Positions 42,460 to 45,004 of a DNA stretch of 64,000 bases are shown piece after piece. The position numbers and the translations under genes were made by a program. This DNA comes from Candidatus Latescibacterota bacterium (lineage in GTDB: Bacteria; Latescibacterota; UBA2968; UBA8231). Every line of letters starts with the position of its first letter. Within the stretch, counting starts at the first letter, position 1. Where the stretch lies: assembly GCA_965217585.1 (NCBI GenBank), contig OZ244561.1, forward strand, positions 5,664,001-5,728,000, in the 5' to 3' direction. Below the pieces are notes generated by a model, which ran no database searches, was not told the DNA's origin, and was given only the letters and a program-made list of their open reading frames with translations.

Positions 42460-43551
42460 TCAAAAATCCATCGCCGGCGGTCCCGTGTAGCCAATGCTCT
42501 GCCACCCGGCGACATCGCCGCCCGTGAGGCGATAGGGGTGCGGATACAGCTTCAGCGTGCGGTCCGCAAAAGGCAGGGACACCCGCTCGTGCTCCCGATG
42601 GGCCGAGCGCACCAAGGCGATAGCCACTTCGAGCGAGTGGCGATAGTCGTCGCCGCTGCTATACGGCTCGGTGCCGGCCTGATGGGCACGTATCAGGCGC
42701 TCGACCGTATAGGCAAAAGCGTCCGCCGCTGGCTGATCCAAAAAGTCGGGATATACCGGAGAAGCCGCCGCGCCGGTCCCCTCGATTAGCACGGGCCGCG
42801 GGCGCGCCAAAAAGACCTGCCCGCGCTCGCCGCCGACCGAGATAAAGGTTGGCACGCGGCCATCAGGCTCAGGGGCGACGACCTCGCAGACGATGCCGCC
42901 GCTCAGCCCCAAACGACCGTACGCAGGCACATCCCCTTCCTCTACAGGAGTGCCTTTCGCCACGTATCCCGGCACCGCCGGCAAGGTGTACCCTTCCACC
43001 CACTCCACATCCATCCCCGTGAGGATGCGCAGGGCCGCGATCTGCACGCAACCGCCGCCCGATACTTCGGTCGGCAGCCCACCCGGGATCGCCGCCGAGG
43101 TCAGCCGCCCAATGTGCCCCTGCCGCACCCACTCGACCACCTCGGGCATATACGGCGTCGCCCATCCGGCCTGAGCGCAGCCGAACAACGTGCCGTGCTC
43201 TCGGCAGATGCGGATCATTTCGTCCGCCTCGTGTAGCTGGTGAGAAATCGGCTTCTCGCAGGACACGACCCGCACGCCAGCGCGAGCGCAGGTGGTGACG
43301 CAGGGATAGTTCTGGCCCACTGGAACGACTGCGGAGACGATGTCGGGCACTTCGGCCGCCAAAAGGCCGTCGAGATCGTCGTACACCTTCTCCACGCCGT
43401 AGCGCCGGGCGATGGCGTCCCGCCGCTCTCTGGCGCGATCGACGAGGCCGACAATCTCGCAGTTGGGATGGGCGGCATAGGCCCGCGTGTAGTAGCGGCC
43501 CCATGTGCCGGCCGCGCCGACGACGGCCACCCGGTATTGTTTATTAGTCAT
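42460..43551 (-). CDS. Gfo/Idh/MocA family oxidoreductase
   Basis: VAVVGAAGTWG Rossmann motif, PDIVS, CEKP. Confidence 0.88.
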   Translation of the reverse strand: MTNKQYRVAVVGAAGTWGRYYTRAYAAHPNCEIVGLVDRARERRDAIARRYGVEKVYDDLDGLLAAEVPDIVSAVVPVGQNYPCVTTCARAGVRVVSCEKPISHQLHEADEMIRICREHGTLFGCAQAGWATPYMPEVVEWVRQGHIGRLTSAAIPGGLPTEVSGGGCVQIAALRILTGMDVEWVEGYTLPAVPGYVAKGTPVEEGDVPAYGRLGLSGGIVCEVVAPEPDGRVPTFISVGGERGQVFLARPRPVLIEGTGAAASPVYPDFLDQPAADAFAYTVERLIRAHQAGTEPYSSGDDYRHSLEVAIALVRSAHREHERVSLPFADRTLKLYPHPYRLTGGDVAGWQSIGYTGPPAMDF

Positions 43552-43565
43552 TGTTAGTCTCCTAA

Positions 43566-43594
43566 TTGACGGGGATAGAGGTCGCGGTTATATT
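43566..43594 (+). promoter_or_regulatory. sigma70 promoter of the tyrS leader
   Basis: TTGACG (43566-71), 17-bp spacer, TATATT (43589-94). Confidence 0.75.
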
Positions 43595-43613
43595 TTTGCG
43601 CGGAGAATGAACG

Positions 43614-43673
43614 ATGCAGAACCTACGCGCCGATCGCCACTATTACTATACCCCGCTTCATAGAGAGGGGTAG
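43614..43673 (+). CDS. Putative Tyr-rich attenuator leader peptide MQNLRADRHYYYTPLHREG
   Basis: GGAGA SD at 43602-06, ATG 43614, TAT-TAC-TAT at 43641-49, TAG at 43671-73; lies immediately upstream of a terminator and tyrS. Confidence 0.8.
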   Translation: MQNLRADRHYYYTPLHREG

Positions 43674-43705
43674 TGCGTTCGCTTTATTGTCTAAACCGCG
43701 TGTAC

Positions 43706-43733
43706 AAGCCCCTGATTACAGGGGCTTTTTTTT
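43706..43733 (+). terminator. Attenuator terminator upstream of tyrS
   Basis: AAGCCCCTG-ATTA-CAGGGGCTT stem running into a T8 tract, 23 nt before the tyrS ATG. Confidence 0.88.
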
Positions 43734-43756
43734 GTGCCTATAAATAAGGAAATATA

Positions 43757-45004
43757 ATGAACATCATACCCGATCTTCAATTCCGCGGCTTGATCTACCA
43801 AGCCACTGACCTCAACGGCCTCGCCGCGCGCCTCGCCGCCGGTCCCGTCGTGCTCTACAATGGCTTCGACCCAACCGCCGACAGCCTGACGGTGGGCAAC
43901 CTCGTGCCGATCCTGCTCCTGCGCCGCTTCCAACTCGCCGGCCACAAGGTCATTGCCTTGGCTGGCGGCGGCACCGGCCTGATTGGCGATCCAGGCGGCA
44001 AGACCGAGGAGCGCCAGCTCAATGCCACCGACGTCGTGGCCGAGTGGACGCAGCAGGTCAAAGCCCAGTTAGAGCGCTTCCTCGAATTCGACGGCCCCAA
44101 CCCCGCAGTGATGGTCGATAACCACGCCTGGCTCGGCCAACTCGCGGCCATCGACTTTATGCGCGATGTCGGCAAGCACTTTCCCGTCCCCTACATGCTG
44201 GCCAAGGACTCGGTCGCCTCGCGCTTAGAAACGGGCATTTCCTACACCGAGTTCAGCTACATGGTGCTACAGGCGTATGATTTCTTGGTCCTCAACAAAG
44301 AATACGGCTGCGAGTTGCAGACCGGCGGCTCTGACCAGTGGGGCAATATCACCGCCGGCACCGATCTGGTCCGCCGCTCCGCCGGCAACCGGGCCTTTGG
44401 CCTGACCTGCCCGCTGGTGACCAAAGCAGACGGCACCAAATTCGGCAAGACCGAGGCGGGCACGGTCTGGCTCGACGTTGCTAAGACCTCGGCCTACCAG
44501 TTTTACCAGTTCTGGATCAACGCCGAGGACCAGAAGGTCGTCGATTACCTGAAAACCTACACCTTCTTGGAGCAGGACGCGATCCTCCAACTCGCCGAAA
44601 CCGTCCGCGACCAGCCCGAACGGCGCGAGGCCCAGCGCACCCTCGCTGCCGAGGCAACGACCATGGTGCATGGAGCCGATGCTGCTCGCCGAGCCGAACG
44701 CATCTCACACGCGCTCTTTTACGGGGAGTTTCAGGAGCTATCCGAGGAGGAAATCCTCGAAGGCTTTGACGACGTGCCAACGCACGCGATGGGTCAGGAG
44801 GAACTATGGCTGATCGATCTGCTCGTCGCGGCTGGCGTCTCCTCCTCCAAGCGCCAAGCCCGCCAAGACGTGCAAAACGGCTCAATCTACATCAACGGCG
44901 AGCGCTGCACGGACATGGCGCGGAGCATGCGGTGCCAAGAGGGCCTACACGGCAAATACCTAATCGTGCGCCGGGGCAAGAAGCAGTACACCCTCGTCTG
45001 CTAG
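43757..45004 (+). CDS. tyrS: Tyrosine--tRNA ligase
   Basis: YNGFDPTADSLTVGN (HIGH-like), QTGGSDQWGNI, KFGKT (KMSKS-like), C-terminal S4 domain ending RRGKK. Confidence 0.97.
   Translation: MNIIPDLQFRGLIYQATDLNGLAARLAAGPVVLYNGFDPTADSLTVGNLVPILLLRRFQLAGHKVIALAGGGTGLIGDPGGKTEERQLNATDVVAEWTQQVKAQLERFLEFDGPNPAVMVDNHAWLGQLAAIDFMRDVGKHFPVPYMLAKDSVASRLETGISYTEFSYMVLQAYDFLVLNKEYGCELQTGGSDQWGNITAGTDLVRRSAGNRAFGLTCPLVTKADGTKFGKTEAGTVWLDVAKTSAYQFYQFWINAEDQKVVDYLKTYTFLEQDAILQLAETVRDQPERREAQRTLAAEATTMVHGADAARRAERISHALFYGEFQELSEEEILEGFDDVPTHAMGQEELWLIDLLVAAGVSSSKRQARQDVQNGSIYINGERCTDMARSMRCQEGLHGKYLIVRRGKKQYTLVC

Follow-up and report, generated by a model that had tools for sequence, protein, structure and literature searches.

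How does a bacterium match the production of tyrosyl-tRNA synthetase to the supply of charged tRNA-Tyr when its tyrS gene sits closely behind an intrinsic terminator? The question is raised by a 64,000-nucleotide stretch of DNA (here called the window; positions 5,664,001 to 5,728,000, forward strand, of contig OZ244561.1, GenBank assembly GCA_965217585.1) from a Candidatus Latescibacterota bacterium, in which a promoter, a very short open reading frame (ORF) with three consecutive Tyr codons, and a terminator precede tyrS. The genome holding the window (G000:C1:5664001-5728000) is a single contig of 7.3 Mb with 59.5% G+C, and its public relatives are labelled Candidatus Latescibacterota, with some older bins labelled Gemmatimonadetes instead. 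A first-pass annotation, made from the nucleotide letters, had described this arrangement and interpreted it as ribosome-mediated attenuation. The observation as described is confirmed, and the anatomy of the locus, the energies of its alternative folds and the conservation of its design indicate that the region is probably a working Tyr-codon leader-peptide attenuator, by which tyrS expression would be coupled to the supply of charged tRNA-Tyr.

All parts of the element lie on the plus strand, within the 205 nt that separate tyrS from a divergent Gfo/Idh/MocA-type oxidoreductase gene (42460-43551, minus strand). The sigma-70-type promoter (43566-43594; -35 TTGACG at 43566-71, 17-nt spacer, -10 TATATT at 43589-94) scores 10/12, and promoter-like sites in 2.5 kb number two, against 0.9 expected. 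Judged from its position, transcription would begin at about 43600-43603. The Shine-Dalgarno sequence of the leader ORF (GGAG, 43602-43605), in a block that is ≥90% conserved in a 28-row alignment of the genus, stands 8 nt before the ATG at 43614; the ORF itself (43614-43673) consists of 19 codons and a TAG (43671-73), with TAT TAC TAT as codons 10 to 12 (43641-49). An overlapping frame from an ATG at 43607 is retained in only 4 of 23 genus loci.

Four segments with competing complementarity can be traced from the Tyr codons onward to the terminator. Segment 1 (43625-43654) comprises the 5' strands of an anti-antiterminator, ACGCGC at 43625-30 and TACCCC at 43649-54. Segment 2 (43666-43682; AGGGGT at 43666-71, then 43673-77 and 43680-82) is the 5' strand of the antiterminator and overlaps the leader stop codon. 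The antiterminator hairpin 2:3 (43666-43713) has 14 pairs in three helices and is mutually exclusive with the intrinsic terminator 3:4 (43706-43733), the stem of which (43706-14 with 43719-27; 9 pairs, 6 of them G-C) carries an ATTA loop and is followed by T8 (43726-33). The tyrS gene (43757-45004) encodes a tyrosine--tRNA ligase of 415 amino acids (TIGR00234, 395.6 bits; cut-off 113.8); its putative ribosome-binding site is the purine-rich AAGGAAA at 43746-52. Because the tyrS ATG follows the T-tract at a distance of only 23 nt and a promoter scan found no plus-strand promoter between terminator and gene, there is no room for a promoter belonging to tyrS itself. The promoter, the Shine-Dalgarno sequence, the ORF with its Tyr triplet, the strong terminator with T8 ahead of tyrS, and the motifs TACCCC, GGGGTA (43667-72), AGGGGT and GCCCCT (43708-13) were all found where the first-pass annotation had placed them. 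Its 6-bp antiterminator pairing also exists, but the predicted hairpin is larger, with two more helices (43673-77 with 43701-05, and 43680-82 with 43698-43700).

The leader is a constant companion of tyrS in the genus. It precedes tyrS in all 23 genus genomes with a full tyrS match and stays with the gene where the upstream neighbour differs (L004, L015, L016, L017, L020-L023). The pattern of change within it is a coding signature centred on tyrosine: in the genus alignment, conservation at codon positions 1 and 2 of the three Tyr codons reaches 93-96%, position 3 of the first two codons varies between T and C (20:8 and 17:11), and the run lengthens to four and six codons where whole codons have been inserted. 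The Tyr run varies between 2 and 6 codons, each keeping its TA, and every leader has 2-6 Tyr codons in frame as opposed to 0-2 TAT/TAC triplets in the other two frames. Apart from the Tyr codons and a G-rich end that is imposed by the RNA strand, the peptide is unconserved.

A rule-based scan of a wider set of 81 tyrS loci, consisting of the window and 80 loci from public genomes (L031-L110), extended this result well beyond the genus. In 41 of the 81, down to about 62% TyrS identity, a short ORF that starts with ATG or GTG and contains 2-6 Tyr codons lies ahead of the terminator; the conserved Tyr runs on which the first-pass annotation had made its reading depend are thus present in relatives, with TAT/TAC swaps. 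All 32 loci with a TyrS identity of at least about 66% (the window and L031-L061) carry a Tyr leader, that of L058 starting with GTG, and nine further Tyr leaders occur at L066, L067, L069, L072, L074, L076, L078, L085 and L091. Too little upstream sequence was available at L065 and L073, and L075 was masked. As controls, 14 loci with a terminator and a candidate ORF (within L089 and L092-L110), all labelled Paenibacillus, Gorillibacterium or Dethiobacter, have 0-1 Tyr codons in the best upstream ORF. The tyrS leader ORFs, at 13-27 codons, lie below annotation cut-offs, as had been anticipated for that of the window, and should be added when such genomes are annotated, as should the thrS leader described below.

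Tyr leaders fall into about ten peptide families that have little in common beyond their Tyr codons, but their geometry is conserved. Of 42 distinct leaders, 39 have a promoter of the form TTGAC-N16-19-TAnnnT directly ahead of the ORF, and the distance from stop codon to terminator stem is 25-44 nt in all. For each distinct leader, the 14-nt stretch of the leader transcript (among 72-112) that best complements the 5' arm of the terminator was located: in 42 of 42 cases this stretch follows the Tyr codons and is contained in the end of the ORF or touches it, and in 32 it is within -20 to +12 of the stop codon. Since arm sequences vary by family and the complementary strand follows, there is compensation at the level of families. 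By these sequence comparisons, an antiterminator strand at the end of the ORF appears to be the invariant element of the design, and the predicted attenuator to be conserved across much of the sampled Latescibacterota.

Two side observations concern the leaders themselves. In seven of the 42 (L058, L069, L070, L072, L076, L077 and L080, from three families), the start codon stands exactly 7 nt after the -10 box; because of this spacing, these leader mRNAs are probably leaderless, unlike those of the GGAG-using genus of the window. In addition, an Arg codon is adjacent to a Tyr codon, or one codon away from it, in nearly all families (L031-L091; 43635-43649 in the window), and the most reduced families have a single Tyr with two Arg on either side. 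This Arg-Tyr adjacency is unaccounted for by Tyr sensing alone.

The alternative structures of the window leader are of similar stability. The 1:2 hairpin (TACCCC at 43649-54 with GGGGTA at 43667-72) is worth -11.0 kcal/mol, or -17.4 kcal/mol if extended by 43625-30 with 43673-78; the antiterminator (43666-43713) is worth -16.3 kcal/mol and the terminator -15.5 kcal/mol. The structures 1:2, 2:3 and 3:4 are mutually exclusive. The fold of the whole leader has a z score of -2.89, with 3 of 200 shuffles as stable. The 5' strand of 2:3 contains the leader stop codon and starts 19 nt after the first base of the last Tyr codon; a ribosome at the stop codon would thus cover this strand, while one on the Tyr codons would not.

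A mechanism consistent with this placement is as follows. RNA synthesis would start at about 43600-43603, and a ribosome would load at the GGAG and ATG 43614 and trail the polymerase. With Tyr-tRNA plentiful, it would reach the TAG at 43671-73 and cover the G-rich strand at 43666-82, thereby blocking the antiterminator; the terminator (43706-27 plus T8) would then form and most transcripts would stop before tyrS. With Tyr-tRNA scarce, the ribosome would stall at 43641-49 and mask segment 1, leaving the G-rich strand, at least 17 nt downstream of the last Tyr codon, free to pair with 43698-43713 once transcribed. The 5' arm of the terminator would be sequestered in this way and the polymerase could enter tyrS.

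Constrained folds of 18 representative leaders largely agree with this prediction. Transcripts were cut before the 3' arm of the terminator and a ribosome was placed on a Tyr codon or on the stop codon. With the ribosome on a Tyr codon, the antiterminator strand pairs with the terminator arm in 15 of 18; the three failures (the window, L013 and L020) are all in the genus, and in each a helix at the 5' end wins. Once the ribosome is shifted to the stop codon, the pairing disappears or moves elsewhere in 11 of these 15, is reduced by half in two and persists in two, in which the strand is situated 11-31 nt before the stop. With nothing masked and no ribosome placed, the antiterminator forms, unopposed by any 1:2 pairing, in 10 of 18 representatives (9 of 10 outside the genus), and the 1:2 element is therefore mainly a feature of the genus and not of the whole group. 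The 1:2 pairing of the first-pass proposal can form in the window, but the genus alignment gives it no covariation support, and it is not kept beyond the genus. The central proposal, Tyr-codon leader-peptide attenuation, is supported by the conserved Tyr codons, the placement of the stop codon relative to the antiterminator strand, the terminator and the promoter, all kept while the remaining peptide and the stems vary.

Several results weigh against this reading. With the ribosome stalled, the minimum-energy fold of the window transcript is not the antiterminator but a 5'-end helix of 43602-24 with 43667-92, at about -18.7 kcal/mol compared with -16.3 to -17.6 kcal/mol when 2:3 is enforced; 2:3 becomes the minimum only when the start region is masked too. 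The three exclusive structures that the first-pass annotation had envisaged are predicted to be of similar stability, but the stalled fold of the window favors a fourth. Covariation within the genus is of little help. The 1:2 pairing has 82.5% of alignment cells paired, which is no better than shuffles, and is without covariation support. The 2:3 pairing reaches 86.9%, a percentage attained by 0 of 500 shuffles, yet its covariation is thin, with only two pairs changed on both sides. The 5'-end helix (80.6% paired, five pairs changed on both sides) is on a par with 2:3 in covariation. In the same alignment the terminator stem is almost invariant and its loop variable, and besides the terminator the RNAalifold consensus contains just one 4-pair hairpin, at the G-run; the genus sequences are too similar for covariation or RNAalifold to choose between alternative folds. 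The compensatory changes that the first-pass annotation had asked for are seen between families, where the complement changes with the arm, but hardly within the genus.

Relatives also supply contrary cases. Four distant loci from three distinct leader families (L068, L070, L077 and L080) have one Tyr codon only (P of about 0.4-0.55). At L097 (430-600), a leader homologous to those of L078 and L091 has its Tyr codons and terminator intact and no in-frame ATG, GTG or TTG, and is either a decaying copy or one with an unusual start codon. No leader was found in at least seven Latescibacterota-labelled loci (L062-L064, L071, L090, L094 and others) or in any of the seven sister-genus loci examined (L024-L030). 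Sister-genus tyrS comes immediately after a gene that resembles trpF (a candidate, by position).

The strand of the 5'-end helix at 43602-24 includes the Shine-Dalgarno sequence and start codon of the leader. A second, initiating ribosome would supply the masking of the start region under which 2:3 becomes the minimum, and the helix itself could work as a further anti-antiterminator or could hold back re-initiation.

A second synthetase gene of the same genome bears on what the leader senses. Genome-wide scans for attenuators were very noisy at this G+C content, and only tyrS and thrS withstood them. The thrS gene (G000:C1:4022418-4024331, equivalent to L111:319-2232; TIGR00418, 679 bits) is preceded by an element (L111:128-300, G000:C1:4022227-4022399) with a promoter-proximal ORF in which 8 of 10 codons are Thr, a 27-nt terminator hairpin and T6, which ends 18 nt before the gene. 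Each of 19 genus loci retains a Thr run of 5-11 codons, and none of 11 loci from other genera showed one.

Other explanations of the tyrS leader have to be set against this evidence. An attenuator that is real but answers to some signal other than tyrosine, whether a protein (e.g., TyrRS or a different RNA-binding factor) or overall translation or polymerase speed, with the ORF only coupling translation to folding, is unlikely. It would accommodate the four distant loci with one Tyr codon, the Arg codons that flank Tyr codons in nearly all families, and the thermodynamic preference of the window leader for a 5'-end helix with some covariation. Against it stand the runs of 3-6 Tyr codons, which are kept and expanded in most families with synonymous variation and in a specific frame, and the identity of the controlled gene as the cognate synthetase; thrS with its Thr-codon leader further indicates that codon identity follows the gene. 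Less credence still can be given to an independent small gene, encoding the 19-residue peptide or a small RNA of about 130 nt under its own promoter and terminator, that merely happens to be upstream of a tyrS expressed by constitutive leak-through. Promoter, ORF and terminator do make up a self-contained unit, and weak, sub-threshold Rfam matches to anti-hemB (20.9 bits against 49.5) and SpF51 (20.4 against 50) were obtained; however, the peptide is unconserved beyond its Tyr codons and G-rich end, the unit remains linked to tyrS across differing neighborhoods, no promoter was found between the terminator and tyrS, and the antiterminator geometry is conserved.

A missed T-box, or another tRNA or ligand riboswitch in which the Tyr codons are untranslated, specifier-like triplets, might be expected on the grounds that tyrS is a classical T-box gene and that the nearest TyrS sequences outside Latescibacterota, those of Paenibacillus at 57-61% identity, are in part located behind T-boxes. 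It is nevertheless very improbable. Permissive Rfam searches of 43300-44000 yielded sub-threshold matches only, all driven by the terminator, with no family at gathering score and no match to the T-box model (RF00230) even at E values up to 10. No T-box was found in the whole genome, while five control genomes match, nor in 20 further loci, 17 of them labelled Latescibacterota. The distance from transcript start to terminator is about 105 nt, compared with about 219 positions in the T-box model, and a variable count of consecutive in-frame Tyr codons after a start codon fits translation rather than a single specifier. That a site resembling a promoter, a short ORF and an unremarkable terminator came together by chance has a negligible likelihood, although taken alone the Tyr excess of the window is modest. 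Three Tyr among 18 non-start codons give a binomial P of 0.016 at the genome Tyr frequency of 3.0%, and the richest leaders reach 2e-5, values that are flattered because the frame with the most Tyr was picked; a lenient terminator scan found one terminator where shuffles gave 1.8, and hence no excess. A single sequence is thus only suggestive, and it is conservation in relatives, with the arrangement kept in 41 of 81 loci and 42 distinct leaders from diverged genomes, that lifts it above chance.

RNA-library metatranscriptome contigs from three studies, 88-95% alike, cover the leader and tyrS region. Contigs in X18 and X21 span leader, terminator and tyrS, while in X17 one contig ends at 43689 and the next begins at 43744. 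Such contigs reveal neither ends nor strand nor level and may come from DNA, and they are neutral with respect to attenuation.

Elsewhere in the genome, no cognate-codon leader was found upstream of pheS, trpS, hisS, leuS, ileS, or the valS-like and metG-like genes, the last two being tentative names for genes found through weak cross-matches only. A hairpin with T5 (G000:C1:672900-673050) stands 19 nt before the putative pheS start, itself 117 nt upstream of the family match at 673164, and the gene before pheS may be rplT (a candidate, by position). As this hairpin is present without any Phe-codon leader having been found, pheS, the classical E. coli case, appears not to be leader controlled here. 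Further attenuator candidates at 706428, 3390861, 4638378, 5599469, 5934027, 806436, 189978 and 3179024 were rejected because they resembled coding sequence or composition effects; the 656-amino-acid ORF that follows 706428 had no NCBIfam family match. A nearly identical palindromic hairpin of 27-28 nt with a T-run recurs at at least six sites upstream of unrelated ORFs (minus strand, near 6845948, 6842616, 6833803, 3659891, 2761316 and 820639 of G000:C1 in the genome scan) and looks like a repeated terminator-like element.

Tyr-codon attenuation of tyrS would extend leader-peptide control to tyrosine, to a textbook T-box gene and to an uncultured phylum for which no published RNA regulation was found. 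The roughly ten leader families form a natural series in which cognate codons, an antiterminator strand at the end of the ORF and a terminator are indispensable, and in which the 1:2 hairpin and the 5' untranslated region are optional. A tentative extension, which we regard as rather doubtful, is that the leader is an old and widespread Latescibacterota trait that replaced a T-box on a Firmicutes-like tyrS, and that later forms became leaderless two-state switches without an anti-antiterminator or came to sense a single Tyr codon amid Arg codons, the Arg-Tyr context sharpening the stall. If this were so, the antiterminator would be the default in the two-state forms and only a ribosome at the end of the ORF would lower tyrS expression, and Arg-Tyr adjacency would mark a codon-pair or nascent-peptide context.

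The proposed attenuator can be placed among known systems by what it senses and how. T-boxes sense uncharged tRNA directly, without translation. The tyrS T-box of B. subtilis acts on the same gene, in response to the same signal (tRNA-Tyr charging) and with the same terminator/antiterminator output as predicted here; its sensing is translation free, and no T-box was found at the Latescibacterota locus. The nearest TyrS sequences outside Latescibacterota belong to Paenibacillus, Dethiobacter and other Firmicutes (57-61% identity, L079-L110). Among 20 related loci scanned, five have a T-box above gathering score, all labelled Paenibacillus; with the nearest Firmicutes genes partly behind T-boxes, the same type of tyrS appears to carry different sensors in different phyla.

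Among leader-peptide systems, the pheST attenuator of E. coli uses the pheM leader peptide. It resembles the tyrS leader in that a cognate-codon leader controls a synthetase gene and provides feedback on tRNA charging, but the amino acid, gene and phylum are different and there is no sequence likeness. In the trpL leader of E. coli, the regulatory codons are in or near segment 1, the stop codon is near segment 2, and 2:3 excludes 3:4. The tyrS leader shares this four-segment logic; trpL, however, controls a biosynthetic operon and not a synthetase gene, and leaders outside the window's genus often lack the 1:2 element, which reduces them to a two-state switch. Matches to the corresponding Rfam models were below gathering score (Phe_leader, RF01859, 19.9 bits against 55; Trp_leader, RF00513, 16.6 against 41), and the likeness is confined to the terminator and the overall layout. 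The Phe_leader model is named only "Phenylalanine leader peptide" and may not derive from pheM.

Attenuation of synthetase genes by leader peptides is a published kind of regulation. PMC1262725 cites classical attenuation of pheST in gamma-proteobacteria and of trpS and leuS in Streptomyces, and lists tyrosine as T-box regulated; for Streptomyces lividans, Table 4 of PMC8079986 assigns leader peptides to alaS, thrS, trpS and leuS; PMC2965389 predicts a His leader upstream of hisS paralogues in bacilli; and PMC2659441 lists Shewanella leaders for aspS and glnS. The full-text literature, from the coverage of which most subscription journals and supplements are absent, yielded no leader peptide for tyrS or with Tyr codons. 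The novelty suggested by the first-pass annotation is accordingly narrower than it had implied: synthetase leader peptides are published for pheST, trpS, leuS, alaS, thrS and a hisS paralogue, and it is the tyrS/Tyr case that was not found in print.

The hisS paralogue of bacilli is, in PMC2965389, a case of a synthetase-family gene switched from a T-box to a leader peptide; it concerns another amino acid and lineage and is there a prediction only. The trpS, leuS, alaS and thrS leaders of Streptomyces (PMC1262725; PMC8079986), which are predicted and have RNA-seq support, are short, often leaderless cognate-codon ORFs followed by a hairpin and a single synthetase gene. Some Latescibacterota tyrS leaders likewise appear to be leaderless, and thrS of the genome holding the window likewise has a Thr leader. 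The Streptomyces leaders have 2-6 cognate codons, some of their terminators are unclear, and none of them belongs to tyrS; in the tyrS leaders of Latescibacterota, by comparison, the terminator is canonical and the antiterminator can be traced.

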